Assembly (NCBI GenBank): GCA_027021445.1
Contig: JALUUH010000130.1
Coordinates: forward strand, 16,872-80,871
Reading direction: 5' to 3'
From: Gammaproteobacteria bacterium
GTDB taxonomy: Bacteria > Pseudomonadota > Gammaproteobacteria > S012-40
DNA length: 64,000 nt
The notes beneath the pieces are model-generated. The model worked only from the letters and a program-made list of their open reading frames with translations. It was not told the origin of the DNA and made no database searches. Below are positions 18,108 through 48,416 of this stretch, piece after piece. Position 1 is the stretch's first letter, and the number at the start of each line of letters is the position of its first letter. Made by a program: the position numbers and the translations under genes.

Positions 18108-18184
<77 letters not shown>

Positions 18185-18453: not shown

Positions 18454-18549
18454 TGTCGAGAGAATAGATGATGCGAATGCCTGATTTTAATGAGGAAATT
18501 TGAAATCATTATAGCTGAATCCTGGATTAACGCTGAGGAAGAATTGAAC

Positions 18550-21669: not shown

Positions 21670-21828
21670 GTTGTTTCCTCTGCAAGAATAGCGATAGCTG
21701 GCATCTAACTTGAACTATCGATGGGTATGACATCCGTATATGAAATGACTTGCAGGAATCAGGCATAGAAAAGCAGACTATAAATAAGGAATATATTTTA
21801 GTTTGACCCATTCCTTAGGAGTGAAACG

Positions 21829-22932
21829 ATGAAGAGACAAACTGTTTTGGTATTAGGGGCCGGCAAAATTGGATCTTTGATTACCTGTTTATTAGCGGAT
21901 TCAAAAGATTACGAAGTACACCTTGCCAGCCTTTACGTGCAAGAAGCTGATAAAATAGTCAGTGATTTATCCTTAGATAATGTGATGACTGCAGAACTCG
22001 ATGCGCAAGATAAAAGCAGTATGCGCACCTACTTGCAAAAAAATGCATTTAATGGGGTCATATCAGGCCTACCATATTATTGCAATATCATCGTTGCCGA
22101 CTTATGTGCGGAACTTAATCTTAATTATTTTGATTTAACCGAAGACGTTGCAGTGACTCGACATATCTTGGATATAAGCAAAGGTAAAAAAAATATATTT
22201 ATGCCGCAATGCGGCCTTGCACCAGGCTTTATTAGTATTGCGGCGAATCAGTTAATGGGTGACTTTGAAACCATAGATACGGTGAAAATGCGCGTTGGTG
22301 CATTGCCAGTGAATCCGAATAATGTTTTGAAATATTCATTAACCTGGTCTACGGATGGTTTGATTAATGAGTATGGAAATACCTGCTATGGCATTGAGAA
22401 AAAAGAGCTTGTGGCCTTACAGCCATTGGAAGGCTATGAAACTATTTCATTAGATGGGGTGCAGTACGAAGCATTCAATACTTCGGGGGGGCTAGGTACT
22501 TTAGCAGATACCTATGCCGGACGTGTTAACACCATGAACTACAAGACCATGCGTTATCCAGGTCATTGTAAAGAAATTATCTTTTTAATGAAGGACTTAA
22601 AGCTTGATGATGATAGAGACACTTTAAAGCGAATTCTAGAAAACGCGATTCCAAAAACACAGCAAGATGTGGTGTTAATTTATGTTGCGGTAACGGGCAA
22701 AAAGAACGGACATTTATTTGAACAGAATTATTTGAAAAAGGTATACCCACAAACCATAGCCGGTGCACGTTGGTCTTCCATTCAGGTCACAACTGCGGCG
22801 GGTATTTGCAGCGTTATGGATATTGTGCTTAATAATATTGATAAGTACGCTGGCTTTGTAACCCAGGAAAGCATTAGCTTAGATGAAGTACTCAATAATC
22901 GATTTGGCAAATATTATGGAGGTGATCAATGA
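21829..22932 (+). CDS. saccharopine dehydrogenase-family oxidoreductase (candidate L-lysine 6-dehydrogenase or saccharopine dehydrogenase)
   Basis: N-terminal [11 protein letters not shown] Rossmann motif, 367 aa. ATGA overlap with the downstream ALDH7 gene. Confidence 0.7.
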
Positions 22933-24455
22933 AGGAGATTTTGCAAGCCTTAAATTTGTCTGCGGATAATATTGTGACTTGCCTAGGCCCTAAGCAGTGG
23001 ATCGATAATGACAAAGCTGACCGCATTGAATCGATCAGCCCCGCAAGCAATGAAGTAATTGCTTGCGTGCAGTGTACGACGAATGAGGATTATGACGCGG
23101 TGATTGCCAATGCAAAACACGCTCAAATCGCTTGGGCGAAAGTGCCTGCGCCACAACGTGGCGAAGTAGTGCGACGGATTGGTAACGCCTTACGCGATAA
23201 AAAAGCGGCCTTAGGAAGTTTGGTTGCTTTAGAAATGGGCAAGATCAAGCAAGAGGGCGATGGCGAAGTTCAAGAAATGATTGATATGGCTGATTTAGCT
23301 GTGGGTCAATCGCGCATGCTTTATGGTCAAACCATGCATTCTGAGCGCCCTATGCACCGCATGTATGAGCAATGGCATCCACTCGGTGTGGTTGGAGTCA
23401 TTTCTGCGTTTAATTTTCCGGTAGCGGTATGGGCGTGGAATGCCTTTATTGCTGCGATTTGCGGTAACACGGTCGTATGGAAGCCTTCAGCTAAGACCGC
23501 ATTATGTGCCATTGCGGTTCAACATATTTGTAACGATGTTATGCAAGAAATGGGATATAGCGGTATTTTTTCTTTATTCTTGCCTGCCGATCATAATATT
23601 TCTGCGCGATTTATTGCTGATCGCCGCGTGGCGTTAATGTCTTTTACAGGCTCTAGCCAGGTTGGTCACTTTGTCGCAAAAACCGTCGCTGGTCGCATGG
23701 GGCGCTATCTACTCGAGTGTAGTGGTAATAATGCCATTATTGTAGACGAAACAGCTGATTTAGATTTAGCGATTCCTGCTATTGTATTTGGTGCGGTGGG
23801 AACAACAGGGCAGCGTTGCACGACCACCCGTCGTTTATTTGCCCAGCGACATATCTATGATGAATTGTTATCGCGACTAAAAAATGCTTATGCTCAAGTA
23901 GTGGTTGGCAATCCGCTAGACAGTTCGACATTAATGGGGCCGTTGATTGATGAAGCCGCAGTGCAAACGTATGAACTCGCCATTGAAAAGGCGACTTCTG
24001 AAGGTGGCAATGTTCTTCTGGGTGGAAAAAGAAAATCAGGCACCGGTTTTTTTGTAGAACCCACCTTAATTGAAGTACAACATCAAAGCGAAATCGTTTG
24101 CGATGAAACATTTGCACCTATTTTGTACATACTCAAATACCAGGATTTAGCACAAGCAATCGAAATGCAAAACGCGGTACCACAAGGTTTATCATCTGCC
24201 TTTTTTACCAACAATGTTAGCAATGCCGAAACTTTTTTATCGGTTCAGGGCAGCGACTGTGGCATTGCCAATATTAATATCGGAACTTCGGGTGCAGAAA
24301 TCGGTGGTGCTTTTGGTGGTGAGAAAGAAACCGGTGGTGGCAGAGAGGCGGGGTCTGATAGTTGGAAAGCCTATATGCGCAGACAAACCAATACGATTAA
24401 TTGGGGAAGCGATTTACCCTTGGCGCAAGGTATTCAATTTGATCTTGGAAAATAA
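22929..24455 (+). CDS. amaB: ALDH7-family aldehyde dehydrogenase (alpha-aminoadipic semialdehyde / piperideine-6-carboxylate dehydrogenase)
   Basis: [28 protein letters not shown]...[23 protein letters not shown] is collinear with the antiquitin (ALDH7A1) signature region. Catalytic Cys context ECSGNNA. Confidence 0.88.
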
Positions 24456-32862: not shown

Positions 32863-32937
32863 ATATATTCCTCGGTTAATTGGGTTTATTAGTGTTGTTC
32901 CCTCCTATTAATTTTATAAGTTGGTGCTATCAAACAA

Positions 32938-32960
32938 AACATGTATTTTATATGAGTTTT
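32938..32960. promoter_or_regulatory. candidate NsrR operator upstream of nsrR
   Basis: AACATGTATTT-T-ATATGAGTTTT versus the 11-1-11 consensus AAGATGCATTT-n-AAATGCATCTT (9/11 and 7/11). 76-98 nt upstream of the nsrR start. Confidence 0.35.
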
Positions 32961-33099
32961 TACTTAAGCCGCCGGAAATACTTTTATAACAGTGCATTAA
33001 TAGTAACAAAAAGCCAAATTCTATGACAAAATTGCATGAAATTTCTGCAGATGCTTTTCTATATTGAACGAGTTGGATCGGAAATATACGCATCCGATT

Positions 33100-33133
33100 T
33101 GTTCTCAGTAGGTCAGTCTGTTCTCGGACAGGC
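33100..33133. repeat. two tandem degenerate TGTTCTC REP-like cores
   Basis: TGTTCTCAGTAGG followed by GTCTGTTCTCGGACAGGC. The latter matches 18/19 nt of the core of the copy at 49337-49355 but lacks the CTAGGAG arms. Confidence 0.5.
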
Positions 33134-33446
33134 ATTGTCAGAGTTTGTAACTTAATCTTAACTGTCAATCTTCATTGGCTTGTCCTCCTAATATATCTAG
33201 AAAAAGCGTCGCTGCATATAGATTGATCTATCCTGTAGAGCATTCATATCATCAGGGATAAATACCAATTTAATCTATTTTTGCTAAGTTTATACCGTTA
33301 AAAGATAATATAAAACATCATCTTATCGCTAAGTATTGAGCCAATTCACTTTCTAAGTGTGAGTAAATTAATAGTCATATGATGGTGCCGTATCTATTGT
33401 GTTGATATAATTGCTCTTTTAGCACTTTAAAGCTTAGGATTTGTAG

Positions 33447-34205
33447 TTGATAGCAAAAGGATCTTTAACAATTCGGTTATTGAATCACTTATGGGTAGAT
33501 AGACTGCTTATCTGCTTGATTTTGCTATGCTTGTTAGTATTTAATCAAGTTAATGCTGCGGAATCTTCTACCCCATTTCCAGTGGAAACAAACGACTCAG
33601 GGATTGAATATGCAAACGATCTTCTGAGCACGCATGAGACAAATTCAGACTATCGAATTGGGCCACATGATTTATTAGAGATAGAAGTTTTCAGAGTCGA
33701 TGAATTTTCTCGAACGGTTAGGGTCAACTCTCGGGGAAATATCACATTGCCTTTGTTAGGCGTAATATCTGTCCAGAATCTTAGCAGTCAAGAATTAGAA
33801 CTCGATATTGCCAATAAGCTTACCCAGCAATTTTTACAACAGCCGCATGTAAGTGTATTTATTAAAGAATACGCCAGCCAACGGATTACGGTTGAAGGCG
33901 AAGTTAAAAAGCCAGGCATATTTGCACTAACCGGACGCACCACATTATTGCAAGCTATCGCTTTAGCTGAGGGCTTGACCGATCTTGCAGATTTAGATGA
34001 TATCCAATTATTTCGTAAGTTAAAAGATGGGCAGACAAAAAATTATGTTTTGAATATCGCTGATATCCGAACGGGGGAAGCAAAAGACCCTATTCTGAGG
34101 GGTAATGATATTATTATTGTGCATCGTGCATCGGTCTTGTCATTCATTAAACGATTTACCGATACTTTAAGAGGATTTATTTACTTTGGAAGCCCATTTA
34201 GATGA
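33447..34205 (+). CDS. outer-membrane polysaccharide export protein (Wza/OPX-like, short form)
   Basis: Signal peptide (NQVNA-AE), Poly_export motif YRIGPHDLLEIEVF, SLBB-like region. The N-terminus has no ATG or GTG, so a TTG start (33447) is required. Confidence 0.82.
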   Translation: MIAKGSLTIRLLNHLWVDRLLICLILLCLLVFNQVNAAESSTPFPVETNDSGIEYANDLLSTHETNSDYRIGPHDLLEIEVFRVDEFSRTVRVNSRGNITLPLLGVISVQNLSSQELELDIANKLTQQFLQQPHVSVFIKEYASQRITVEGEVKKPGIFALTGRTTLLQAIALAEGLTDLADLDDIQLFRKLKDGQTKNYVLNIADIRTGEAKDPILRGNDIIIVHRASVLSFIKRFTDTLRGFIYFGSPFR

Positions 34206-36448
34206 CACAGCTGTTGAATAAAGATGCTGCAAATGATGAAGATCGCAGCAATAAAAGAGTTGATCGTTCGATATACGACCGGCGAAAGCTCGCAACAGGT
34301 ATCGTTGCGAATACCTATGTACATGATGAGGACGTTAATCTAAGAGATTACTGGCATATAATTATTAATCGCCGTTGGATAATATTACTATTTCTCTTTG
34401 TGGTGTTGCTCTCTACATTAGTCGCTACTTTTTTAATGACGCCGATATATCGCGCTAGTTTGTTATTACAGATTGAACGCGAGCCTGCAAAGGTATTGGA
34501 GTTTCAAGATATTAACCCTGTGGAATCATCACGGGACAAAGATTTCTATCAAACTCAGTATGAATTATTAAAAAGTCGAAGCTTGTCAAAGCGTGTTGTT
34601 GATGAGCTAGATCTTTATTCAAACCCCATTCTTAAAAAAATAGTGATTAAAAAATCAATACTGAGTTCGATGCTGATATCCTTGTCGGGTCAAACTGCGT
34701 CTACCGAGGCGATAAACGAAGAAGAATTGTGGATAAATTATTTTTTGCAACAATTGACGATAGAGCCGGTAAAAAACTCTCGCTTAGTCCGAGTACATTT
34801 TGATTCGCCAGATGTTTCTTTGAGCGCTCAGGTTATTAATACTTACGCTGATAATTTTATAAATATGAATCTTGAGCGTCGCTTTGAAGCTTCTTCTTAC
34901 GCAAAAACATTTTTAGAAGACCGGTTAGCCCAAGTACAAGCAAAACTCGAAGAATCAGAACAAAAGTTAGTAAAATTTGCCCGAGAAAACCAGATTGTAA
35001 ATATTAGCTCTAGCCAAAATATTGACAGCCAAAGATTGACTGAAATGAATGTCGCTTTATCTAAAGCGGGTCAAGATCGAATCGATGCAGAAGCAACGTA
35101 TAATCAAACAACAAATAGTGATTTTTTTGAAGTTTTATCCAGTAAAGTTGTTCAAGAGTTAAAACATACTTTGGCGAAATTAGAAGCACAGTATTCTGAT
35201 CAACTTAAAATTTATAAACCTGCCTATCCTACAATGCAGCAGCTAAAAGGACAAATTGAAAAAATTGAAAGTAAAATTATTGAAGAAATAAACAGTATTC
35301 GGGTGGCTATCAAATCTCAGTTCCAAGCTGCACTAGAGAAAGAGAAGTTACTTAAAGCCGAATTAATTATTTTGCAAGAAAATGTACTAGGTCTGCAAGA
35401 TAGGAGTATTCAATATAATATTTTACAACGAGAAGTCCAAACAAATCGCGAATTATATCAAGGTTTATTGCAAAGGATGAAAGAAGTGGGTGTAGCAGGG
35501 GGTATAAGCTCGAATAATATATTCATCGTCGATGCTGCTGTAGAGCCTGATAAAAAACACAAACCGAAGCTGGTGATCAATATGTTACTCGCATTATTAG
35601 TTGGCTTATTGGGAGGCATTGGACTCGCGTTCTTGTTTGAGCATCTTGATGATACTTTAAAGCAAGCGGATGATTTTGAGAAACTGGTTTCGCTACCTTC
35701 GCTGGGTTTAGTACCGGTGGTGAGTGAAAATGTATCAACATCTGATTTAGGGCTGTTATCGCATTATGACTCTGGCTCAATGTTAGCCGAAGCTTATCGT
35801 TCAATCAGAACTTCATTGAGTTTTGGTACCACCAAGGGTGCTCCTACCAGTTTATTAATCACTAGTCCTGGGCCTGGAGAAGGAAAAACAACTTCGGCGC
35901 TGAATATTGCGATTACGTTTACCCAATTGAATAAACAGGTTTTGCTTATTGATGGTGATTTAAGGAATCCATCTATTCATAAACTGTTACGGATCAGGAA
36001 TAATATTGGATTGAGCAATTACCTGACATCTGAAACTGGGCCAGCCGATGTGTCTCAGGATACTGAAATTGAAGGGCTTTTTGTTATGCCTGCCGGACCC
36101 GTTTGTCCAAATCCTGCAGAACTATTATCAAGTGAAAAAATGGGAGAATTGCTCACTATTGCACAGCATAAGTTTGATTATGTCATAATAGATGGCCCTC
36201 CGGTACTCGGTCTAGCTGATGCATTAATACTCAGCAAACAGGTTGTTGCGGTGGCAATGATTGCTGAGGCAGGCAGCACCAGAACAGGCATGCTAAAAAT
36301 GAGTGTAAAGCGATTAGTTAAAGCGCACGCTAATATAATGGGCGGCATATTAACAAAAATAGACGCAAAACACGGATTGTACGGTTATTATGGACAATAT
36401 TATTCCTATGAGCGAGACCAAGAAAATAGCCCAAAGCTACCTGTGTGA
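34202..36448 (+). CDS. polysaccharide co-polymerase with BY-kinase domain (Wzc-like PCP-2a)
   Basis: Wzz N-domain with TM, long coiled periplasmic region, second TM, Walker A SPGPGEGKTT, Walker B VIIDGPP, C-terminal Tyr cluster GLYGYYGQYYSY. ATGA overlap with the upstream gene. Confidence 0.9.
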   Translation: MTQLLNKDAANDEDRSNKRVDRSIYDRRKLATGIVANTYVHDEDVNLRDYWHIIINRRWIILLFLFVVLLSTLVATFLMTPIYRASLLLQIEREPAKVLEFQDINPVESSRDKDFYQTQYELLKSRSLSKRVVDELDLYSNPILKKIVIKKSILSSMLISLSGQTASTEAINEEELWINYFLQQLTIEPVKNSRLVRVHFDSPDVSLSAQVINTYADNFINMNLERRFEASSYAKTFLEDRLAQVQAKLEESEQKLVKFARENQIVNISSSQNIDSQRLTEMNVALSKAGQDRIDAEATYNQTTNSDFFEVLSSKVVQELKHTLAKLEAQYSDQLKIYKPAYPTMQQLKGQIEKIESKIIEEINSIRVAIKSQFQAALEKEKLLKAELIILQENVLGLQDRSIQYNILQREVQTNRELYQGLLQRMKEVGVAGGISSNNIFIVDAAVEPDKKHKPKLVINMLLALLVGLLGGIGLAFLFEHLDDTLKQADDFEKLVSLPSLGLVPVVSENVSTSDLGLLSHYDSGSMLAEAYRSIRTSLSFGTTKGAPTSLLITSPGPGEGKTTSALNIAITFTQLNKQVLLIDGDLRNPSIHKLLRIRNNIGLSNYLTSETGPADVSQDTEIEGLFVMPAGPVCPNPAELLSSEKMGELLTIAQHKFDYVIIDGPPVLGLADALILSKQVVAVAMIAEAGSTRTGMLKMSVKRLVKAHANIMGGILTKIDAKHGLYGYYGQYYSYERDQENSPKLPV

Positions 36449-36493
36449 AATAAATCACAAGTATTATTCAGAACTAGTGGTACAAGATAAATA

Positions 36494-36536
36494 AGTTTTT
36501 AGTTATTTTAGTTATTTTAGTTATTTTAGTTTTTAG
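36494..36536. repeat. 9-bp tandem repeat (AGTTATTTT x3 flanked by AGTTTTT variants)
   Basis: AGTTTTT AGTTATTTT AGTTATTTT AGTTATTTT AGTTTTT AGG runs directly into the SD AGGTGA (36535-36540) of the ExeA-like gene. Confidence 0.85.
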
Positions 36537-36545
36537 GTGAGCTAA

Positions 36546-39191
36546 TTGTACGAAACACATTTTGGTTTAACAGGATCTCCATTTCGACTTAGTCCTGACC
36601 CCCGTTTCTTTTTTGGGAGTAAGGGGCATAAGCGTGCGCTTGCGTATTTACGGTATGGTTTAACCCAAAGAGAAGGATTTATCGTAGTTACGGGTTCGCC
36701 CGGAACAGGGAAGACCACGCTCGCAAGAGCCTTGTTAGATGAAGTCGCTAAGAATAAAATTATTGTTTCAGAGCTAAATACCACGCACCTCGAAGCAGAT
36801 GATGTATTGCGGATGGTTGCCGCATCATTTGGCCTAGAACACGAAAACCTAACTAAAGCTTCTTTATTAAAAAGACTTGAGCGCTTTTTTCTCACCAAGT
36901 ACCGAGCTGGTTATCATTGTTTATTAGTGGTCGATGAGTCGCAAAACCTCCCGTTCGGTTCTTTAGAAGAGCTTCGCATGCTGTCCAATTTTTATGCGGG
37001 AAAGCATGCTTTGTTACAAATATTTCTCCTGGGGCAGCAACAGTTCCGAGATGCTTTGTATGACCCAAAATTAGAACAATTGCGCCAGCGAGTCGTTGCC
37101 GCAACACATCTAGATCCATTAAATGCGAAAGAAACACGTGCCTATATTATTCACCGGTTAAATCATGTTGGATGGAAACAAAACCCCACGTTTACTCAAC
37201 GGGCTTTTGCCTATATCTATACCTTAACAAAAGGTGTTCCTAGACGTATCAATACTTTTTGTGATCGATTAATGTTATTTGCTTCTTTAGAAGATATTTC
37301 TGAGATCAATGATACACACGTAAAGGACGTAGCCAAGGAATTGATGTATGAAGTGACGTCCCATAAATCTGACTCTCCAACGAAAAAGGAAACAGATTCA
37401 GCACAGACATCTCTTGAGTTGACCACGATTGAAGAACCTACGCCTTCAGAGATTATACTTATTGAAGAAGAATTTCGACAAGAAGAAGAGCTTCTTGAAT
37501 CAGATATATCGAAAACAGAAATTGTAAAAAATGCACAGTTGTCGGCACCTGATGAAATAGATACGAATACCCAGGTTCCAGTTGTTGAAATCGTTGCGCA
37601 AAATGAAAACAAGAATGAAACTATCGATGAAGAGCACCCCACTAATACAAAACCAAAAAATAAATCTAAAAAACGCAAAGGGCAAAGCAGATCTTATGCG
37701 GATGCAACAACATTTCACAAATCAAGAAATAATACTCAAATATCACCGAGAAAAAATATTGAACATAAACCCCAGTATTTAAATCAACAACCTGGGTTCT
37801 CATTAGTTGCCTTGGCTATAGACTATTACCAAAATCCTAACGAGTATAAAGAGCTGTTACGTTCATCTTCCGTTTTACCGCCGGGTATTGCCGAACTTTT
37901 TAGAGTTGCAATGGGTAAATTACATATTGATTTAGATGATTTTGAAGGGCTTACCGATTTAACCCAAGCAGATCTAAAAGAAGCAGCTCGGCGTTTCATT
38001 AAAGAAATATTGTTATCCAATGCTTCCGATTACTATCGACGACTTGGTCTAACTAAGACCGCTAGTCAAGAGCAGATTAAAGCACACTATCAAATTATGT
38101 TTAAGCTTTTTCAACCTGATCAGGAGAAAGACTCAGCGTTATGGAACGAATCTTTTGCGATAAAAATCAATCAAGCCTATGTCTCGTTAAGAGAAAAAAC
38201 AATGCGGGATGCTTACGACTATTTTCTTGACTCTTTGGAAATTGTCGAACTTGATCATGAAATACAAACAGAAAATGAGTTTGCGGACGTTCCTCGTGTT
38301 GTAGATGCCCCCCCTTTAAAACAAGCAGTAAAATCAACGGAAAAAACTTTTGGTTTAGATAAAAAAATCAAAATGATTATAGCTGTTCTGATTTCTATTA
38401 CGTTAGGTTTGATCCTTGTATTAAACCCCTCAATACTGGTATTGAATAAGGATGATTTTTTTGATTCACCCCCTATAAACTCAATTCCAGGCCTGAAGAG
38501 TGAGGATATTCCTCTTTCCTTGACCGAAGAGCATGAAATAAACCAAATAGACAATATCCTTAATAGTGATTCAGAATTTGGAGAGCCAGCGCTGCTTGAT
38601 GATGTAACAAACCCAATGTTGTCAAGTATAGATAATTCAGGGCAAAAAATTGCTAATGAACTTGTTGTTAAAAAGACCGTTGAGTCGAAAATTGATAACA
38701 TAGTGGTGAAAAATAAAGTTGCCGCTAACAATGTAGCAAAAGGGGATCAGAAACCAAAGGTGAGTTCAGTTAAAACGTCTAATGAGCTTGATTCTAATGC
38801 GGTTATCAGAAGTAATTCCATGATATCGGAAAAAGAACTTAATTCCGTAATGAGCTTGTTTTATAAAACCTATGAAGAGGGTGATTTAAAAGAGTTTATT
38901 CGATTGTTTTACAAAAATGCGATTACCAATGATAGAAAAAGCCGGATGGGAATTGCAAAAGATTATTCCCGGCTTTTTAGCTCGACAGATAGGCGAAGCA
39001 TAAGCATCAATAATCTTGAATGGAATATCGAGGAAAACAAGGCCTCGGGAATTGGTGATTTTATTGTTAGAACGGTTAAATCTGGGGAAGGCGAGACTAA
39101 AAGCTTCGAAGGTACAATAAGGTTAGTTGTGCTAAAGGAAAGGGGAAAAATAAAATTTAAAGAAATGTATCATGCTTATAGTGAGGAATAA
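36546..39191 (+). CDS. ExeA/GspA-type AAA ATPase fused to J-like domain, TM helix and periplasmic NTF2-like domain
   Basis: N-terminus MYETHFGLTGSPF, Walker A GSPGTGKTT, Walker B LLVVDESQ. J-like segment DYYRRLGLTKTASQEQIKAHYQIMFKLFQPDQ (aa ~495-560), TM aa ~608-633, C-terminal ~120 aa SnoaL/DUF4440-like. TTG start 5 nt after AGGTGA. Confidence 0.8.
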   Translation: MYETHFGLTGSPFRLSPDPRFFFGSKGHKRALAYLRYGLTQREGFIVVTGSPGTGKTTLARALLDEVAKNKIIVSELNTTHLEADDVLRMVAASFGLEHENLTKASLLKRLERFFLTKYRAGYHCLLVVDESQNLPFGSLEELRMLSNFYAGKHALLQIFLLGQQQFRDALYDPKLEQLRQRVVAATHLDPLNAKETRAYIIHRLNHVGWKQNPTFTQRAFAYIYTLTKGVPRRINTFCDRLMLFASLEDISEINDTHVKDVAKELMYEVTSHKSDSPTKKETDSAQTSLELTTIEEPTPSEIILIEEEFRQEEELLESDISKTEIVKNAQLSAPDEIDTNTQVPVVEIVAQNENKNETIDEEHPTNTKPKNKSKKRKGQSRSYADATTFHKSRNNTQISPRKNIEHKPQYLNQQPGFSLVALAIDYYQNPNEYKELLRSSSVLPPGIAELFRVAMGKLHIDLDDFEGLTDLTQADLKEAARRFIKEILLSNASDYYRRLGLTKTASQEQIKAHYQIMFKLFQPDQEKDSALWNESFAIKINQAYVSLREKTMRDAYDYFLDSLEIVELDHEIQTENEFADVPRVVDAPPLKQAVKSTEKTFGLDKKIKMIIAVLISITLGLILVLNPSILVLNKDDFFDSPPINSIPGLKSEDIPLSLTEEHEINQIDNILNSDSEFGEPALLDDVTNPMLSSIDNSGQKIANELVVKKTVESKIDNIVVKNKVAANNVAKGDQKPKVSSVKTSNELDSNAVIRSNSMISEKELNSVMSLFYKTYEEGDLKEFIRLFYKNAITNDRKSRMGIAKDYSRLFSSTDRRSISINNLEWNIEENKASGIGDFIVRTVKSGEGETKSFEGTIRLVVLKERGKIKFKEMYHAYSEE

Positions 39192-39281
39192 GGAGTGCCC
39201 ATTCCTAAGAGCGATATTTCCGTAAATTCTGTTTTATTTTTTTTCGGTGTATAAAGATAAATAGTCGTTTCGGGATTTGCT

Positions 39282-40511
39282 TTGATTAGAGCCTATCAAT
39301 CAATATTATTTCTTGTGGCTTTGGGTTTGATTTGGCGCATAATTTCTCTCGGTTTTTCTGAGTATTTTTCAACGGATGTTGCAACAAAAAATATAGACAC
39401 TGTGTTGAAGTGGAATTCTTCTAACTCACAAGCATTGTTTTCTAAGAGCCTATCGCAATTATCATCTGATACGAATTTTTTTACGTCCTCTTTAACAGAA
39501 TCTATTATTAGTAATGTTTCTGATTCTCGGGGGTTGGTCTTACTAGCCGAGCACTGGGCTGAGCAAGGTGAGGTTGCAAAAGCGAATAAAGCGATGAGAT
39601 TATTAGGAGAAATGTATCCTGCTGATGCCAAAGTAAACATCGCAGTTGCTTCCTATTTTTATAAAAATAATAACATTACTGAAGCATTCCAGCATTGGTC
39701 TCAGGCAATGACAAGGTCTCATCATTTTGATACCATTTTATTTGAATTTATATATTCTCAACTTAATAATAGAGACATGCGTGCAGCTATCCTAGACGCA
39801 GCAAAACAAGCGTCGAAGTGGTGGCCGAGATTTTTTGCTTTCGCAATCAAGCAATCTAATAAGCATGATATTGAAATAGTAGATGCCTTATATGACGCAA
39901 GACTTGACGTGAAAAATTCAGTAGAGCCTGCAATTCGTAGACAATATATAAGATACTTAGTAAAACGAGAAAACTGGCAAAAAGCTTATATGGTGTGGCT
40001 GTCTGGCTTGTCGTTAACAGAGAGAGAATCACTAGGTTATTTGTATGATGGCGGATTTGAAAATGAGTTTGATCATTATGGTTTTTACTGGCATGCCTAT
40101 AAAAACAAGGCCGCTAAAATTGATCGTGTTCGATCAAATGTCGGTGCTAGTGGAAATAAAGCCTTAAAAGTCACTTTTTTAAATAAACCGACAGCGTTTC
40201 ATCATGTTCGCCAAAAAACCCTATTAAGTGCTGGACGTTATCTTTTTAAAGGCAAAGTTAAAAAAGACGGTTTAAAGAGTAATAGAGGGGTTAGTTGGCG
40301 GATATCTTGTGGAAGAAAAGCCGTTTTAGGTGAAAGCACTCGGTTTAATGGGATGGAGCATTGGCAGTCTTTTGAGGTAGAATTCAAGGTTCCTGAGCAG
40401 AATTGCAATATGCAAGATATTTGGCTAGTGACTAAAGCTAAAAATAAGTCTGATTTTAAAATAAAAGGCAGTCTCTGGTTTGATGATTTATCGATTGTGA
40501 AACTGCATTAA
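39282..40511 (+). CDS. membrane-anchored TPR-like protein with C-terminal carbohydrate-binding (CBM4_9-like) domain
   Basis: N-terminal TM (ILFLVALGLIWRIISLGF), helical repeats, C-terminal beta-rich domain starting GGFENEF and ending LWFDDLSIVKL. TTG start, no clear SD. Confidence 0.6.
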   Translation: MIRAYQSILFLVALGLIWRIISLGFSEYFSTDVATKNIDTVLKWNSSNSQALFSKSLSQLSSDTNFFTSSLTESIISNVSDSRGLVLLAEHWAEQGEVAKANKAMRLLGEMYPADAKVNIAVASYFYKNNNITEAFQHWSQAMTRSHHFDTILFEFIYSQLNNRDMRAAILDAAKQASKWWPRFFAFAIKQSNKHDIEIVDALYDARLDVKNSVEPAIRRQYIRYLVKRENWQKAYMVWLSGLSLTERESLGYLYDGGFENEFDHYGFYWHAYKNKAAKIDRVRSNVGASGNKALKVTFLNKPTAFHHVRQKTLLSAGRYLFKGKVKKDGLKSNRGVSWRISCGRKAVLGESTRFNGMEHWQSFEVEFKVPEQNCNMQDIWLVTKAKNKSDFKIKGSLWFDDLSIVKLH

Positions 40512-40541
40512 ATAAAAACGACAATGATAAAAAGGTAAGTA

Positions 40542-41072
40542 ATGAGAAAAAACAAATGGATAGCTTTGTTCTTAATAATACTTGGACAGGTGTCAGGGAA
40601 TGTTTTTGCAGAGCAAGTAACAGTTGGTGAAATTTCAGGCATTGTTATGCTAAACAAGGATGGAGTGTTTGTTAAAGTAGGTACTGGAATGGAGCTAGAG
40701 GTTGGCGATCAAGTATATGTGCTAGAGAACTCTTCTGCTTTATTATTACAAGGAAATGACTGTGCTGCACGATTGAACTCAAATGAATTATTTAAGCTGG
40801 ATAAATCTGATCTTTGTGCTCAGAATTCAAATACAATTAATTCGCAGGGGCCTAAACTAGTTGCTGCTATTGGGTTAGATGAGCCAACTTCTGATTCGGG
40901 TGATGCTGGCTCAAATACGGAATTACCAGAAGATCAACAAAGTGGTACCGAAGGTGGTAGAGTTTTCTCAGGACTTGCAGCGAAACTGGCTGTCCCAGCA
41001 ACATTAACTGGCGCCGTGTTATTCTCAACTATTGCTGGTGGTGGTGGTGTTGGGGCTATTAGTCCTGAATAG
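40542..41072 (+). CDS. small exported FecR-domain-like protein with hydrophobic Gly-rich C-terminus
   Basis: Signal peptide (NVFA-EQ), FecR-like pattern GIVMLNKDGVFVKVGTGMELEVGDQVYVLENSSALLL, acidic S/T/G-rich linker, C-terminal LAVPATLTGAVLFSTIAGGGGVGAISPE. SD AAGGT upstream. Confidence 0.6.
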   Translation: MRKNKWIALFLIILGQVSGNVFAEQVTVGEISGIVMLNKDGVFVKVGTGMELEVGDQVYVLENSSALLLQGNDCAARLNSNELFKLDKSDLCAQNSNTINSQGPKLVAAIGLDEPTSDSGDAGSNTELPEDQQSGTEGGRVFSGLAAKLAVPATLTGAVLFSTIAGGGGVGAISPE

Positions 41073-41162
41073 TCTGTTTAGAGTGTTTCATCAGGCTGTC
41101 TTTCCCTTCTATTATACTCTTAATATGCGCACTCCAACTGCGGATTCTAGGATAATGGTGGG

Positions 41163-42653
41163 ATGATTAACAATGTGAATCCACCGACTAAACTGAGCCA
41201 AATTATTTTTGCTTTAGTGGTCATTTTGTTGGTCTTAGCACCATTGTTTCGCGGCGGTAATCGACCTATAGCACTGATGTTAATCGAGCTATTAGGTCTT
41301 GCTTTGTTATTATTGATGATATCCCAGCCGCAACGGATTTTAGTCATTCCCCGGTATTTGCGTTACTTTATTGTTATTTTTGTTTCGATACCGCTACTTT
41401 ACTTAATACCTATTCCTATCGATTGGTGGGCGGTACTACCGGGTAGAGAAGGCTATTACGAAGTACTTTCATTACTAGAACATCAAGACGTTTTATTTCA
41501 TTCTTTTTCAATAAACTCACTAGCAACCGAACTTTCTAACCTAGTTATAATCCCTATTGCGGCGATTTTTATGAGTTGCTTTTTCTTAAATCAAAAGCAA
41601 TTGTTTGATGTCATCAAGTTTCTTATTTTGTTAGGTGCGCTGCAGGCAATCATTGGACTCATGCAGTTTAGTACGAGCATTGACCACTGGATACGCTTTG
41701 GGATCGAGACTCACAGCACGAATGCGGTGGGAACTTATCCTAACCGCAATCATTTTTCTGGTTTACTAGAAATGATTTTACCATTAGCCATCGCTTATTG
41801 GGCGATTTGCTTTAATCATCGAATCAGTAAGGATTCTCGCCATCATTGGCGAACCAAGCTTGCTTATTTGGCAGATAAAGAATCTTTACTGATTGCAGGT
41901 GTAGGTGTTGTCATTTTGCTACTTATTTTGGGAGTAGTATTCTCGCGTTCTCGAACAGGTATAGCCCTCGTCATGTTATGTATTTTCTTATCCGCCATTT
42001 TGCTTACGCCTAAGCTAAATCGTAAGAGAGGCATTCGAGGTATAGTATTCTTAGTGACGCTTGTTCTGGTGATTGCAGCTCAGATTGGCTTAGCTCCTGT
42101 TTTCCAGCGCTTTGCTGATCAGGATCCTCTTACAGATAGTCGCTGGACGATTTATCGAGTTACCAGTGATGCCATTAGCCAATATTTTCCGCTCGGTAGT
42201 GGGCCTGGTACCTATGAATCCGTTTTGTTAGGTTTTCAACCAAATAATATCCAGCATTTTATTAATCACGCGCACAATGATTATTTAGAGTGGATGACTG
42301 AATTAGGCATTTTTTCTGTTATCCTATTTATCGGCTTTTTATCCATAATTAGTTGGAAGTTTATTCAACTGATGAGAAACAAAGACTGGGGTGATATTAA
42401 CTATATTCAAATGGGATGCGGTATCGGAATATTTTTAATGCTATTACATAGTCTTACTGACTATAATTTGAGAATACCCGCGAATGCACTTATTTTTGCA
42501 TTTTTATGTGGCGTATTTTTAAAATCCAACCATGAGCCGACAAAAAAAAGAGTAATACGAAATCGTAAGGCTAAAACATACTGTGAAAATAATCGAGAAG
42601 CAAAGCGCAGTTTAAACTCTCCGAGGAATCAACGAAATCCATTTCTTAATTAA
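41163..42653 (+). CDS. O-antigen ligase-like (Wzy_C family) polytopic membrane protein
   Basis: About 10-12 TM helices, Wzy_C signature loop HAHNDYLEWMTELGI, basic C-terminal tail. Confidence 0.8.
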   Translation: MINNVNPPTKLSQIIFALVVILLVLAPLFRGGNRPIALMLIELLGLALLLLMISQPQRILVIPRYLRYFIVIFVSIPLLYLIPIPIDWWAVLPGREGYYEVLSLLEHQDVLFHSFSINSLATELSNLVIIPIAAIFMSCFFLNQKQLFDVIKFLILLGALQAIIGLMQFSTSIDHWIRFGIETHSTNAVGTYPNRNHFSGLLEMILPLAIAYWAICFNHRISKDSRHHWRTKLAYLADKESLLIAGVGVVILLLILGVVFSRSRTGIALVMLCIFLSAILLTPKLNRKRGIRGIVFLVTLVLVIAAQIGLAPVFQRFADQDPLTDSRWTIYRVTSDAISQYFPLGSGPGTYESVLLGFQPNNIQHFINHAHNDYLEWMTELGIFSVILFIGFLSIISWKFIQLMRNKDWGDINYIQMGCGIGIFLMLLHSLTDYNLRIPANALIFAFLCGVFLKSNHEPTKKRVIRNRKAKTYCENNREAKRSLNSPRNQRNPFLN

Positions 42654-42660
42654 TTCTGGT

Positions 42661-44172
42661 TCATGATGAAACTTCATTATTATTTTTTTGTTCAAGGGTG
42701 AATTCAGCTTTATTGTCTTCGGTAACCGTTTCTAGCCGTACCGTAAATCCCCATAATCGTGTTAAGTGTTTCATAACTTCATCAACTGTTGAAGCAAGAG
42801 GTTTGCGATTATATTGCTCGTGGCGTAAAGTCAGTGCGCGATCACCACGTATATCAACATTATAAACTTGAATATTCGGCTCTTGGCTTCCTAGATTGTA
42901 CTGGTCTGCTAACAAGGTTCGTATTTGTTGGTATCCTTCGTTATTATGTATGGCCGATATTTCGATATTTCGATTTTTGTCATTATCGAGTACCGAAAAT
43001 AACTTTAAATCACGCATAACCTTAGGTGATAAATATTGAGAAATAAAACTTTCATCTTTAAAATTTTTCATCGCAAAATCCAGACTGTCAATCCAGTCTG
43101 TGTTAACTAAATCTGGAAACCATTCGGTATCTTCTGCGGTGGGATTTTCACAAATTCGTCGAATATCGCTCATCATTGAAAAGCCAAGAGAATAGGGATT
43201 AATCCCATTGTAATGAGGTGCGTCAAAAGGAGGTTGGTAAGTAACATTGCTATGTGATTTTAAAAATTCAATCATAAATCCATCGGTTACTAATCCTTCA
43301 TCATAAAGCTGATTTAATATAGTATAATGCCAAAATGTTGCCCACCCTTCATTCATTACTTTGGTTTGTTTTTGCGGATAAAAATACTGCGATATCTTTC
43401 TGACTATTCGCACTATTTCTCGTTGCCAGGATTCGAGTAAAGGCGCATTTTTTTCAATAAAATAGAGAATGTTCTCTTGCGGTTCGAGCGGAAAACGTTC
43501 TACTATTTTTTCTTCTTTTTCGGTCTCAAGAGTTGGTAATGTGCTCCATAGCTCATTGACTTGAGACTGCATATAAGCTTCTCTGTCTTTTAGCCTTGCG
43601 TGCTCCTCTTTCATGGAAACAGGGTGTGGACGCTTGTACCGATCAACTCCATAATTCATTAGTGCATGGCAAGAATCTAAAATTTCTTCAACGGCAACCT
43701 CGCCGTATCTCTTCTCGCAGTCAGCAACAAAATCTTTTGCAAAGACAAGATAGTCAATAATGGCATCAGCTGAAGTCCATTGTTTAAATAAGTAATTATT
43801 TTTGAAGAATGAATTATGTCCATACGCGGCATGTGCAATGACGAGTGCTTGCATCATCATTGAATTTTCCTCCATCAAGTATGAAATACAAGGATTGGAG
43901 TTTATAACTATTTCATAGGCTAATCCCATTTCCCCTCGACGATATTTTTTCTCGGTTTCCATGAATTGCTTTCCAAAAGACCAGTGATTATAACCTACCG
44001 GCATACCAACAGAGGAGTAAGCATCCATCATTTGCTCAGCAGTGATGACCTCAATTTGATTAGGATAGGTATCTAAACGAAAATTTTGGGCAATTCTCGA
44101 TATTTCTTTATCGTATTGTTCAATTAAGTCGAAAGTCCATTCGGAGGTCTCTGATATAGGCTTATTTTTCAT
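42661..44172 (-). CDS. SpoVR-family protein
   Basis: 503 aa, collinear with E. coli YcgB/SpoVR (ISYLMEENSMMMQALVIAHAAYGHNSFFKNN). Last gene of the prkA operon. Confidence 0.9.
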   Translation of the reverse strand: MKNKPISETSEWTFDLIEQYDKEISRIAQNFRLDTYPNQIEVITAEQMMDAYSSVGMPVGYNHWSFGKQFMETEKKYRRGEMGLAYEIVINSNPCISYLMEENSMMMQALVIAHAAYGHNSFFKNNYLFKQWTSADAIIDYLVFAKDFVADCEKRYGEVAVEEILDSCHALMNYGVDRYKRPHPVSMKEEHARLKDREAYMQSQVNELWSTLPTLETEKEEKIVERFPLEPQENILYFIEKNAPLLESWQREIVRIVRKISQYFYPQKQTKVMNEGWATFWHYTILNQLYDEGLVTDGFMIEFLKSHSNVTYQPPFDAPHYNGINPYSLGFSMMSDIRRICENPTAEDTEWFPDLVNTDWIDSLDFAMKNFKDESFISQYLSPKVMRDLKLFSVLDNDKNRNIEISAIHNNEGYQQIRTLLADQYNLGSQEPNIQVYNVDIRGDRALTLRHEQYNRKPLASTVDEVMKHLTRLWGFTVRLETVTEDNKAEFTLEQKNNNEVSS

Positions 44173-44180
44173 AGTCAGTT

Positions 44181-45449
44181 CTAGGTTTCTTTTTCTTTGC
44201 TAAAAAGTTCTCTGAAAACAGGATATATATCAGCGAGATCATGCAGTTGTTGCATGGCAAAATTAGGATAAGAAGATACTACTTTTTCATACTCGTACCA
44301 TAGGCTTTGATGGTTTTGCGGTGTAATTTCCACATAGGCAAAATATTGCACAAACGGCATAATCTCTTCTTCCAATAATTTTTTGCATAGTGGGGAGTCG
44401 TCATGCCAGTTATCACCATCTGAAGCTTGCGCAGCATAGATATTCCATTCATCTTCTAAATAGCGTTCTTTCGCTATCTTAATCATGAGATGGAGAGCGC
44501 TAGATACAACGGTTCCCCCCGTTTCACGCGAATAAAAAAAATCTTCTTCTGATACTTCTTTGGCAATAGTATGGTGCGAAATAAAGACAAGTTCTATTTT
44601 TTCATAATTACGATTAAGAAAAAGATACAGCAGAATAAAAAATCGTTTAGCCATGTCTTTCTTTTTTTGATCCATTGATCCCGATATGTCCATAAGGCAA
44701 AACATGACCGCTTGTGTCGTTGGTTTTTGAATATCAACTCTGTTGTTATAGCGCAAGTCAAAAGTATCTAGAAAGGGAATAGCATCACGCTTTCGTTTAA
44801 GCCCTTCAATTTCTTTTTCTAATAATAAAATAGCTGAATCATCCTTCAGAACTGCTCGTAAAAGCAATTCCAATTCTTTTTCTTTTTCTTTTATTTTTTT
44901 TCTATAGGGATTTCTCAAAGAAATTCTTCGAGCTTGAGCACTTCGCATGGAGCGAAGAATATTGATATTGCTGGGAACACCTGCGGTAGTGAACCCAGCC
45001 CTAGATTTACTTTTTTCGTAAACAGTTGCTAGTTTTGTTTTTACCAGATTGGGCAGTTCGAGATCCTCAAAGAAGAACTCCATGAACTCTTCTTTGCTAA
45101 GTTCGAAAACAAAATCATCCGAACCCTCCCCTTTATTATTCGCTTTATTTCCCGCTCCGTTCCCCTTTCCACCTCTTGGTCTAGGAATTTTGTCTCCTGG
45201 AACAAAATCATGGTTTCCCGGGTGAATGATATCTCTTCGCCCACCTTGTCCATGATAGATAGTAGGTTCTGAAATATCCTTGGACGGAATAGACACCTTT
45301 TCGCCACTATCAATATCAGTAATACTTCGACCAGCAATCGCATCAGTTACTGCTTTTTTAATCTGGCCTTTATAGCGCCTAATGAATCGCTGGCGATTTA
45401 CAGCGCTTTTATTTTTTCCATTGAGGCGGCGATCAACAAGTCTGTACAA
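44181..45449 (-). CDS. yeaH: YeaH/DUF444 protein (vWA-like)
   Basis: 422 aa, MIDAS-like [10 protein letters not shown], Gly/Lys-rich segment. 12 nt downstream of prkA. Confidence 0.9.
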
Positions 45450-45461
45450 AATGACATCCTT

Positions 45462-47384
45462 CTAAGAAGATTTGCGCACACGTAGATACCAATCGCAGAG
45501 CAAACGAACTTGTTTTGAGGTGTAGCCCTTATCGGACATACGCTGTAAGAAATCATCATGTTTTTTCTTATCCTCAGAAGAGGACTTAGCATTAAAGGAA
45601 ATGACAGGCAAGAGATCTTCGGTATTTGAAAACATTTTTTTCTCAATGACGTTTCTGAGTTTTTCGTAACTTGTCCATTTTGGATTTTTGCCTTTGTTTA
45701 CCGCCTTTGCTCTCAGTACGAAATTGACAATTTCATTGCGAAAATCTTTTGGATTACTAATTCCTGCGGGTTTCTCTGTTTTTTCCAACTCTTCATTGAG
45801 TGCCGCTCTACTAAATATTTCACCCGTATCGGGATCACGATAATCTTCATCTTGAATCCAATAATCCGCATAAGTAACATAGCGGTCAAAAATGTTCTGT
45901 CCATATTCAGAATAACTTTCTAAATATGCTGTTTGTATTTCTTTACCGATGAAACCGACATATTCTCTGGCAAGATAACCTTTGATAAATGACAAATAAC
46001 GTTCTTCAAGTTCAGCAGAAAATTGTTCCTGTTCTATTTGCTGTTCTAATACGTAGAGTAGATGTACAGGGTTTGCCGCTATCTCAGTGTTATCGTAGTT
46101 AAAAACGCGTGACAGGATCTTGAATGCAAATCGAGTGGATAATCCTGTCATTCCTTCATCAACGCCGGCAAAATCGGTATATTCTTGATATGATTTTGCA
46201 TGTGGGTCAGTGTCTTTTAAATTTTCACCATCATAGACCCGCATTTTAGAATATATATTCGAATTTTCTGGTTCTTTTAAGCGCGAAAGTATGGCAAATT
46301 GAGCCATCATTTCGAGTGTGTCTGGCGCACATGGCGCTGCTGATAAAGAGCTTTCGCGCAGCAGTTTGTTATAAATCTTTATTTCATCAGATACCCGTAA
46401 GCAGTAAGGAACTTTCACGATATAGATTCGATCAAGAAAAGCTTCGTTATTCTTGTTATTTTTAAATGTTTGCCATTCAGATTCATTGGAATGTGCTAAT
46501 ACAATTCCGTCGAAAGGTATCGCGCCTAATCCTTCGGTGCCTTTATAATTACTTTCTTGGGTTGCGGTTAGCAGCGGATGCAACACCTTTATCGGCGCTT
46601 TGAACATTTCAACAAACTCTAATAAACCTTGGTTTGCCAAACATAGGCCGCCCGAATAACTATAAGCATCAGGATCATCTTGGGCGAACTCTTCGAGCTT
46701 TCGAATATCTACTTTGCCTACCAAGCTAGAGATGTCTTGATTGTTTTCATCACCGGGTTCGGTTTTTGCGATACCCGCTTGTAATAAGATGGATGGTTTG
46801 AGTTTAACAATTTTAAATTTGGTAATATCTCCATTAAACTCATGTAATCGTTTAACCGCCCACGGTGACATGATGCCATTGAGATATCGACGAGGAATTC
46901 CATAATCTTCTTCAAGAATGTCGCCATCTTCTTCAGCAGAAAACAACCCTAAAGGCGATTCATTGACTGGTGAACCTTTGATGGCATAAAAAGGCATTAC
47001 TTCCATTAATGCTTTTAGTTTTTCTGCCAGTGAAGACTTTCCTCCACCAACCGGGCCTAATAAATATAATATTTGTTTTTTCTCTTCTAATCCTTGTGCC
47101 GAGTGTTTGAAATAAGAAACTATTTTTTCTATCGCGTCCTCCATGCCGTAAAAATCCTTAAATGCAGGATATACTCTGACCATTCGATTAGAGAATAATC
47201 GACTTAATCGTGGATCTTTTCGGGTATCGAGCATTTCTGGTTCGCCGATGGCTGCTAACATTCGTTCGGCGGCGGTGGCGTATGCAGAAACATCTGACTT
47301 GCAAATAGAAAGGTATTCTTGAATGGAAATTTCTTCTTCTTTTGATGCGTCAAAGCGTGTTTGAAAGTGATTGAATATGCTCAC
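45462..47384 (-). CDS. prkA: PrkA/YeaG serine protein kinase (AAA-like N-domain)
   Basis: 640 aa, Walker A GPVGGGKSS, conserved PrkA core. GTG start 8 nt after GGGAGG. Confidence 0.93.
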   Translation of the reverse strand: MSIFNHFQTRFDASKEEEISIQEYLSICKSDVSAYATAAERMLAAIGEPEMLDTRKDPRLSRLFSNRMVRVYPAFKDFYGMEDAIEKIVSYFKHSAQGLEEKKQILYLLGPVGGGKSSLAEKLKALMEVMPFYAIKGSPVNESPLGLFSAEEDGDILEEDYGIPRRYLNGIMSPWAVKRLHEFNGDITKFKIVKLKPSILLQAGIAKTEPGDENNQDISSLVGKVDIRKLEEFAQDDPDAYSYSGGLCLANQGLLEFVEMFKAPIKVLHPLLTATQESNYKGTEGLGAIPFDGIVLAHSNESEWQTFKNNKNNEAFLDRIYIVKVPYCLRVSDEIKIYNKLLRESSLSAAPCAPDTLEMMAQFAILSRLKEPENSNIYSKMRVYDGENLKDTDPHAKSYQEYTDFAGVDEGMTGLSTRFAFKILSRVFNYDNTEIAANPVHLLYVLEQQIEQEQFSAELEERYLSFIKGYLAREYVGFIGKEIQTAYLESYSEYGQNIFDRYVTYADYWIQDEDYRDPDTGEIFSRAALNEELEKTEKPAGISNPKDFRNEIVNFVLRAKAVNKGKNPKWTSYEKLRNVIEKKMFSNTEDLLPVISFNAKSSSEDKKKHDDFLQRMSDKGYTSKQVRLLCDWYLRVRKSS

Positions 47385-47885: not shown

Positions 47886-48416
47886 GTGAAGCTTCCGTTG
47901 CAAATAACAACACGAAAACTTTCCTTATCGAAATACGCATCCGATATCATCAAGCAAAAAGTCAGTAAACTTGAAACTTTTTATGACAAAATTATCGGCT
48001 GTCGTGTAATGGTAGAGGCGCCACATAAGCATAAGAATCAAGGTTCATTATATAATGTCAGTATCATAATTAGCGTTCCCGGTTCAGAGTTGATCGTCAA
48101 ACGAGAGCCTGACCAAGACATATATATCGCTATTAGGGATGCATTTGATGCTGCAAGACGACAAATACAGAACTTTGCGCGTAAAAGACGAGGAGAAATA
48201 AAAACCCACAGTACGGTGCCGATCGCGACAATAACAGAGATCTACCCACATATGGGATATGGTTTTATGGTGACTAATGATGGTCGACAAATTTATTTTC
48301 ACAGTAATAGCTTAGTAAATCATGATATTGAGCAGATAGAAATTGGTGCTTCGGTACGGTTTGCCGAAAAACAAGGAATGGATGGCCCACAAGCGAGTAC
48401 TGTTGCCTTAGTTTAA
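47886..48416 (+). CDS. HPF/RaiA (ribosomal S30AE) domain fused to a cold-shock-like domain
   Basis: The N-terminal ~105 aa fit the HPF pattern (ISVPGSELIVKREPDQDIYIAIRDAFDAARRQI). The C-terminal ~65 aa are CSD-like (GYGFMVTNDGRQIYFHSNSL...GASVRFAEKQGMDGPQASTV). GTG start 6 nt after AGGAGA. Confidence 0.75.
   Translation: MKLPLQITTRKLSLSKYASDIIKQKVSKLETFYDKIIGCRVMVEAPHKHKNQGSLYNVSIIISVPGSELIVKREPDQDIYIAIRDAFDAARRQIQNFARKRRGEIKTHSTVPIATITEIYPHMGYGFMVTNDGRQIYFHSNSLVNHDIEQIEIGASVRFAEKQGMDGPQASTVALV

Follow-up and report, generated by a model that had tools for sequence, protein, structure and literature searches.

A six-gene Wzy-type export block beside spoVR, with an ATPase fused to a membrane J-protein, as a predicted variant of a widespread unannotated polysaccharide cassette

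The 64,000-nucleotide stretch considered here (the window; positions 16,872 to 80,871 of contig JALUUH010000130.1, assembly GCA_027021445.1, from a Gammaproteobacteria bacterium) carries at 33447-42653 six co-directional genes, P1 to P6, several of whose products resemble parts of the machinery for Wzx/Wzy-dependent synthesis and export of exopolysaccharide (EPS) or capsule. From sequence comparison the block appears to be a glycosyltransferase-free variant, with an ATPase fused to one component, of a widespread and unannotated Wzy-type cassette. A preliminary description of the window, made by reading the letters, had given the six open reading frames, their overlap and gaps and a 584-bp region on their left, and all were confirmed. 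The genes are:

33447-34205, + strand: P1, 252 aa, OPX protein (for outer-membrane export of polysaccharide)
34202-36448, + strand: P2, 748 aa, Wzc-type class 2a polysaccharide co-polymerase with bacterial tyrosine kinase (PCP-2a/BY-kinase)
36546-39191, + strand: P3, 881 aa, predicted fusion of ATPase, J-like, transmembrane (TM) and NTF2-like parts
39282-40511, + strand: P4, 409 aa, bitopic TPR-CBM protein
40542-41072, + strand: P5, 176 aa, small protein with signal peptide
41163-42653, + strand: P6, 496 aa, polytopic Wzy_C-domain protein

The OPX protein and the PCP-2a/BY-kinase with tyrosine cluster that a Wzx/Wzy-dependent pathway requires are both present on Pfam, NCBIfam and motif evidence. 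P1 has a Sec-type signal, a Poly_export domain (aa 64-139) and a single SLBB domain (aa 145-225) by Pfam, followed by a conserved amphipathic tail of 24 aa (aa 229-252, 'DTLRGF...F'); it has no Wza_C match, even at E<10, and its best match in the PDB is 9n9a_A, a 186-aa chain named 'Polysaccharide export protein'. The tails of cassette OPX proteins share 'DTLRGF' and end at or beside an aromatic Phe, P1 of the window ending F-R. Both in its size and in having Poly_export and SLBB without Wza_C, P1 fits the Class-3 OPX proteins, which have neither Wza_C nor GfcC and are exemplified by the WzaB-WzpB-WzcB translocon of Myxococcus xanthus. Proteins of that class need a porin (PMC9603273), and WzaB binds its own by a Phe-Phe tail (PMC12819527) which the aromatic-rich tail of P1 resembles. 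Unlike the M. xanthus case, however, no beta-barrel porin gene is present in the block or window, and P1 has a Sec-type signal with no obvious lipoprotein signal as well as the additional conserved tail, which may alternatively span the outer membrane itself as a short membrane helix.

P2 combines Wzz, GNVR and AAA_31 domains (Pfam), scores above the TIGR01007 cut-off and, from sequence and topology, is a PCP with two TM helices and a cytoplasmic kinase. Its Walker A motif, GPGEGKTT, is at 35870-35893, with A' reading LLIDGDLR and B reading VIIDGPP, and its C-terminal cluster of six tyrosines, LYGYYGQYYSY, is at 36377-36409. P6 is polytopic with a Wzy_C domain (73.5 bits, aa 250-390) and an AHNDY motif, and is a candidate Wzy polymerase on that basis, with no sequence match in the PDB. 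Pfam thus bears out the domains that had been read by eye in P1, P2 and P6, while the further suggestion that P6 belongs to TIGR03097 falls because P6 has no NCBIfam match at all.

The protein of greatest interest is P3, which divides as follows:

36546-37349, + strand: aa 1-268, cytoplasmic P-loop ATPase domain of TIGR03015/ExeA(GspA) type
37803-38414, + strand: aa 420-623, conserved pre-J region, J-like domain (aa 495-558) and single TM helix (aa 608-626), together matching by homology the N-terminal half of protein X (below)
38751-39179, + strand: aa 736-878, NTF2-like (SnoaL/DUF4440-like) domain in the periplasm, matching by homology the C-terminal domain of X

The N-terminal part exceeds the TIGR03015 cut-off (349.3 against 324.5 bits), matches AAA_22 in Pfam and has Walker A GSPGTGKT and Walker B VVDE; the J-like part scores 40.4 bits against Pfam DnaJ PF00226 (cut-off 27.8) and also matches J domains in the PDB. 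Sequence and topology place the ATPase and J-like domains in the cytoplasm and, beyond one TM helix, the NTF2-like domain in the periplasm. The preliminary description was right about the AAA_22/TIGR03015-like and DnaJ domains; what it missed is that the 881-aa protein appears to be an ATPase fused to a J-domain membrane protein that is standard in the cassette elsewhere. There, a separate gene, X, encodes a conserved N-terminal region, J domain, TM helix, proline-rich linker and C-terminal SnoaL/DUF4440-like (NTF2-like) domain, this last being missing from short forms of ~200-250 aa. Stand-alone X proteins clear the Pfam DnaJ threshold: the J domain scores 49-60 bits in L124 and the five long forms, and 32 bits in L143, a short form. 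A profile built from X matches P3 over aa 420-623 and 736-878 (E = 1e-58), as it does every long-form ATPase, and it is because of these alignments that P3 is taken as a predicted fusion in which a TIGR03015/ExeA-like ATPase is joined to the J-TM-NTF2 protein of the cassette. The profile finds no match in canonical XrtA loci, the short-ATPase control set obtained by a profile search of genome contigs (all statements here and below on canonical loci apply among the matches listed).

The fusion goes with a change at the HPD tripeptide, which J domains need for stimulating Hsp70. At aa 523-525 (38112-38120) P3 has QPD in place of HPD. Each of the 18 J-proteins that lack a fused ATPase keeps the His, P4-fused ones included (16 HPD, 2 HSD), and none of 106 ATPase-fused proteins does (31 QPD, 42 RQD, the rest other variants), though since the sequences are related these counts overstate the number of independent events. 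QPD is conserved across a subfamily and so is not random.

Two known proteins offer partial parallels to P3. ExeA/GspA, the ATPase that assembles the secretin of type II secretion, has a cytoplasmic ATPase, one TM helix and a periplasmic domain, and P3 shares this plan with an AAA_22-type P-loop ATPase. However, its periplasmic domain is NTF2-like rather than the peptidoglycan-binding PF01471 (no peptidoglycan-binding domain was found in P3), a J-like domain is inserted, and the window has neither ExeB/GspB nor a secretin. DjlA, which acts by way of the Rcs phosphorelay, is linked to induction of colanic acid and has its gene outside polysaccharide loci, resembles the cassette J-protein in having a cytoplasmic J domain that is tethered to the membrane and connected with capsule or envelope machinery; the cassette protein differs in its periplasmic NTF2-like domain. 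DjlA activity requires both membrane localisation and an active HPD, and HPD-to-QPD (H233Q) is a known co-chaperone-dead change (PMC11709261). Unlike native DjlA, the J-protein of the window is fused to an ATPase and carries that same change.

Other fusions occur among the homologues. In proteins of ~660 aa an HPD J domain is joined directly to TPR-CBM (L136:4921-6900, L137:7127-9139, L138:772-2751, L139:8960-10972), which from the sequences would be a second fusion tying cassette components together. Predicted ATPase-X fusions of 1,100-1,400 aa with two or three NTF2-like copies and an 'RQD' J-like remnant are present in L006, L008 and L009, adjoining genes for a 960-990-aa OPX and a Wzz-like protein; between those genes L006 has a YjbH-family beta-barrel and L008 and L009 have an open reading frame of ~710-720 aa at the same position. 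In L038 (8142-13337 and flanks) a 749-aa protein with the ATPase and part of X is followed by a Sel1-repeat/SPOR (peptidoglycan-binding) protein, and its gene is preceded by those for a Bac_transf priming transferase, a histidine kinase, a sigma-54 response regulator and a 948-aa TPR protein (PrsK/R/T-like).

P4 and P5 are less readily placed in known families. P4, with no Pfam match, is anchored by an N-terminal TM helix (aa 7-25) and has TPR-like helical repeats in the periplasm (aa 38-250) and a CBM4-like beta-sandwich (aa 255-409). Its AlphaFold model, from an 11-sequence alignment, has pLDDT 87.6 and pTM 0.77, and the top PDB matches of the sandwich are to CBM4-2, CBM61, CBM16 and CBM22 (E down to 5.5e-7, target TM-score 0.69-0.75; 4bj0_A by Foldseek gives E = 5.5e-7 and 0.69). 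The label TPR-CBM is supported by the confident model together with these matches, as is, at the level of a modelled fold, a CBM4-like domain predicted to bind glycan. A profile search of 1.84 billion representatives yields a P4 family that numbers 2,287 at E<=1e-30; most members are full length, and they are named only 'hypothetical' or 'TPR repeat protein' and have no functional annotation. Among organisms that can be cultured, Thiothrix caldifontis has a P4 homologue, SEA74147.1.

Besides a signal peptide, P5 has a small beta domain in which two Cys are conserved, an acidic linker and a hydrophobic segment rich in Gly and Ala (LAVPAT...). Its C-terminus reads P-[I/V/L]-S-x(1-2) in the family, with Ser invariant in 23 sequences and P-I-S in the window (41058-41069). 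A k-mer search gave 3 homologues only. No Pfam match was seen for P5 at E<5 and none in 22 relatives, a PDB profile search with the family was empty, and the AlphaFold model (pLDDT 36.5) is unusable; for these reasons the 'FecR-like' label (PF04773) that P5 had received is rejected as unsupported, no FecR match being present in P5 or the 22 relatives at E<1. A LapA retention module was also considered and dropped, as the weak NCBIfam match (E = 0.0012) is not reproduced in relatives.

The same set of genes recurs widely. A survey of 66 metagenome loci with a P4 homologue, found with a 7-sequence P4 alignment, plus two contig loci, 68 in all, gives the recurrent order OPX, Wzc, X, P4, P5 and Wzy_C. 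Where at least 3.2 kb is available upstream of P4 (26 loci), Wzc is present in 22 and X in 17; with at least 2.5 kb downstream (30 loci), Wzy_C is present in 21 and a P5 relative in 16. Sugar-pathway genes accompany the cassette in 15 of the 21 loci of at least 10 kb, and 11 of these 21 encode a priming phosphoglycosyl transferase, which in most cases resembles WecA and lies immediately alongside. The complete locus L120 runs WecA-like transferase, CpsB phosphatase, OPX, Wzc, X, P4, P5, Wzy_C, NTP_transf_5, epimerase, WecG-family transferase, methyltransferase and GT4. A TIGR03015-type ATPase is present in only 2 of the 68 loci. Literature searches on TIGR03015, on ExeA with PEP-CTERM and on J-domains with Wzc and exopolysaccharide yielded no description of such a cassette; the epsSMASH preprint reports that most EPS clusters are uncharacterised, and J-domains go unmentioned in it.

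The closest well-studied counterpart is the Wza-Wzc-Wzy system for capsule and colanic acid in Escherichia coli, which shares the OPX, the PCP-2a with fused BY-kinase and C-terminal tyrosine cluster, and the polytopic Wzy_C protein. In contrast to Wza, P1 is short at 252 aa, with one SLBB and no detectable Wza_C helix; near the block there is no low-molecular-weight protein tyrosine phosphatase, Wzx, priming transferase or glycosyltransferase, and the block has three extra conserved components, the ATPase-J-NTF2 protein, the TPR-CBM protein and P5.

The immediate surroundings of the block are two:

32863-33446: gene-free upstream region, 584 bp, GC 0.325
42661-47384, - strand: spoVR-yeaH-prkA operon, convergent; a conserved syntenic neighbour outside the module

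P1 and P2 overlap by ATGA at 34202-34205, the gaps from P2 to P6 are 97, 90, 30 and 90 nt, and 7 nt (42654-42660) separate the end of P6 from the convergent spoVR stop, the overlap and this last gap being read directly from the sequence. A terminator scan placed no terminator-like site in an intergenic gap and did no better than on shuffled controls, and promoter-like matches are no commoner than in shuffled sequence; with no intrinsic terminator or above-background promoter signal between the genes, their co-transcription as an operon is plausible from sequence. The promoter is presumably in the 584-bp upstream region, where an empty Rfam scan rules out a riboswitch. Two remarks in the preliminary description, that the block is more AT-rich than its flanks and that three of its genes need TTG starts, fared less well. 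Block GC is 0.379 against 0.401 +/- 0.031 for the other genes of the window, less than one standard deviation away, so the former carries no weight. The TTG codons are merely the first start following a stop, except that for the 881-aa gene an alignment with homologues, which start M-Y-E there, supports the TTG. Horizontal acquisition as an island was also considered and is rejected, given the ordinary GC and flanking synteny conserved in relatives.

As had been noted by eye, the 64 kb hold no sugar-nucleotide enzyme, glycosyltransferase, Wzx, exosortase or PEP-CTERM protein: jackhmmer and phmmer searches of the window with seeds from related loci, and reading of the translations, gave no glycosyltransferase, priming transferase, Wzx, XrtA, amidotransferase or epimerase, and a regular expression for a PEP-TM-basic tail found no PEP-CTERM-like tail in its open reading frames. 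A further 4.9 kb of the source contig to the left of the window consists of housekeeping genes too.

Homologues of P3 number more than 1,100, and nearly all of the best 120 are of 780-1,430 aa and from uncultured Gammaproteobacteria; their NCBI name, 'XrtA-associated ATPase', is misleading for the long-form proteins. The neighbourhoods of such orthologues were compared, as the preliminary description had proposed. In relatives at 70% and 40% identity all six genes recur in unchanged order and convergent on spoVR-yeaH-prkA, and no glycosyltransferase is present within 10 kb of the block; three others have the ATPase-J fusion alone. The 40% relative, L004, differs from the window in having a CpsB/CapC PHP tyrosine phosphatase after Wzy_C (L004:16136-16924) and, 6 kb upstream of its six-gene block, a second set comprising Wzc, a 245-aa TPR-like protein and Wzy_C (L004:1-2301). 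The three 'solo' relatives share the same chromosomal backbone. In one of them a 107-aa open reading frame after the ATPase-J gene (L089:12893-13216) keeps only the 'LAVPAT' hydrophobic segment of P5 and is probably a remnant of a lost cassette. In a neighbour-joining tree of the ATPase domain the six-gene loci form one clade nested among 'solo' loci, which suggests loss of the cassette from the latter rather than its gain in the former.

Several features elsewhere in the window may also be mentioned. Near the spoVR side, at 47886-48416, a hibernation-promoting factor (HPF; Ribosomal_S30AE) is fused to a cold-shock domain, an arrangement conserved by prkA-yeaH-spoVR, a sigma factor and DUF1249 in L001, L004, L007 and L089, with HPF at that site lacking the cold-shock domain in L005 and L088. 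A methyl-accepting chemotaxis protein (18490-20376) contains an internal near-identical tandem duplication of a PAS-containing unit of ~125 aa. At 20500-24455 a DUF1338 protein and a saccharopine dehydrogenase (both by eye only) together with an aldehyde dehydrogenase look like a lysine-catabolism module. A single tRNA gene (18108-18181) is the only match in the window at the Rfam gathering threshold.

How the block is to be understood depends first on its relation to XrtA/PEP-CTERM systems, of whose accessory half it had been said to be reminiscent. It could be such a half in earnest, with exosortase, substrates, stp glycosyltransferases and amidotransferase elsewhere in the genome. The N-terminus of P3 clears the TIGR03015 cut-off, and most canonical loci that are long enough have the order OPX, chain-length determinant, tyrosine kinase, a gene for ~470 aa and ATPase, so that P1-P2-P3 are collinear with the front end of the XrtA locus of Ectothiorhodospira shaposhnikovii (L018: TIGR03027, TIGR03007, TIGR03018, the outer-membrane protein TIGR03016, TIGR03015, stp1, XrtA/EpsI, stp2 and amidotransferase); one long-form ATPase, that of L038, moreover adjoins PrsK/PrsR/PrsT-like regulators and a Bac_transf priming transferase. 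While the likeness in gene order and in TIGR03015 therefore stands, the rest of it does not. P1 and P2 fall well under the XrtA-specific equivalog cut-offs (TIGR03027, 92 against 180 bits; TIGR03007, 105.6 against 278.85; TIGR03018, 126.8 against 230.65), and the block's chain-length determinant and kinase are fused and its ATPase has a 600-aa extension. The block lacks XrtA, stp1/stp2 and amidotransferase, seed searches found no TIGR03016 homologue in the window, P6 does not match TIGR03097, and no PEP-CTERM tail was seen in the window. Homologues of P4, P5, P6 and X, all represented here, are in none of the canonical loci examined, and 36 of 47 canonical loci have xrtA at a distance of 10 kb or less, as against none of the 11 long-form loci (Fisher p = 3e-6). 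Membership of an XrtA system is accordingly unlikely.

The preliminary description had itself offered two readings, and it is the first, a detached piece of a split EPS locus, that fits better, for the reason that homologous cassettes elsewhere adjoin priming transferases and glycosyltransferases. With moderate confidence, the block is regarded as the part that polymerises and exports the product, the core of an exopolysaccharide or capsule pathway that depends on Wzx/Wzy and is regulated by Wzc, its sugar genes being elsewhere in the genome; split clusters are documented in M. xanthus (PMC9603273). A number of considerations weigh against this. Neither the window nor the 4.9 kb to its left has a glycosyltransferase, priming transferase or Wzx, so that the split is something we infer for this organism, and the porin partner for a Class-3-like OPX is missing from block and window. 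Judged by sequence, a Wzy_C protein such as P6 may be either a polymerase or a ligase, and kinship among the sequences inflates the correlation between HPD loss and fusion. The three 'solo' relatives keep the ATPase-J fusion intact beside spoVR with no cassette within 10 kb, so P3 may act independently of its present neighbours. The second reading, a self-contained envelope machine with no repeat-unit pathway, in which the ExeA-like ATPase would serve to install or gate the OPX channel and the Wzy_C protein would be a ligase or O-glycosylase for a substrate in the periplasm, could draw on that persistence of the fusion by itself, on retention of the glycosyltransferase-free block at the same locus down to 40% identity, and on the inclusion of ligases and O-oligosaccharyltransferases among Wzy_C domains (Pfam description). 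It is nevertheless very unlikely: the WecA-like priming transferases, GT4 and WecG transferases and epimerases beside the same cassette elsewhere point to a pathway for an undecaprenyl-linked polymer, an intact Wzc kinase and Tyr cluster such as are present here typify polymerising systems, P3 has neither a peptidoglycan-binding domain nor an ExeB or secretin partner, and no candidate substrate gene is present. It is also highly improbable that the block has ceased to function and is what decay or orphaning has left of an EPS locus that was once complete. The missing sugar genes, the loss of five of the six genes in sister lineages (one keeping only the 107-aa frame with the P5 hydrophobic motif) and the decay of HPD to QPD could be taken that way, but all six frames are intact and full length relative to homologues, they still have the Walker motifs, the Tyr cluster and the residues invariant in their families, lineages just 40% identical share the block, and QPD is a subfamily feature instead of random damage.

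If the block is indeed the core of a split Wzx/Wzy pathway, its working might be pictured as follows. P6 would polymerise undecaprenyl-diphosphate-linked repeat units at the periplasmic face, and the polymer would be exported by P2, as a co-polymerase/tyrosine-autokinase ring, and P1, as a conduit in the periplasm leading to the outer membrane. P4, with its anchor in the inner membrane, would offer the nascent chain a TPR scaffold and a CBM4-like glycan-binding domain, holding the growing glycan and scaffolding P6 to P2, with P5 as a small envelope partner. In most cassettes the unfused HPD J-protein presumably recruits DnaK to the machine at the cytoplasmic face; in the clade under study the fused ATPase would have taken over an energy-dependent assembly or remodelling step, the J domain having decayed to QPD. 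Priming transferase, glycosyltransferases, flippase and probably an outer-membrane porin would be encoded elsewhere in the genome.

Wzx/Wzy export has been thought understood in outline, with Wzy, Wzc and Wza, plus a porin for Class-3 OPX proteins. To these the cassette adds three conserved and unannotated partners that recur in thousands of protein clusters: the membrane J-protein, with its NTF2-like domain in the periplasm, the TPR-CBM protein and the small protein whose C-terminal Ser is invariant. The pairing of HPD with J-proteins not fused to an ATPase, and of non-HPD with those that are, is a natural experiment that makes a possible role of Hsp70-type energy input in polysaccharide export directly testable. 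A tentative and rather doubtful, though possible, proposal is that a widespread family of Wzy-type EPS machines includes a dedicated inner-membrane J-protein that recruits DnaK/Hsp70 for assembly or remodelling of Wzc-Wzy-OPX, and that in one gammaproteobacterial clade this was replaced by a fused ExeA-like ATPase, after which the HPD was lost. Were it true, polysaccharide polymerisation and export would have an unrecognised step driven by a chaperone or an ATPase.

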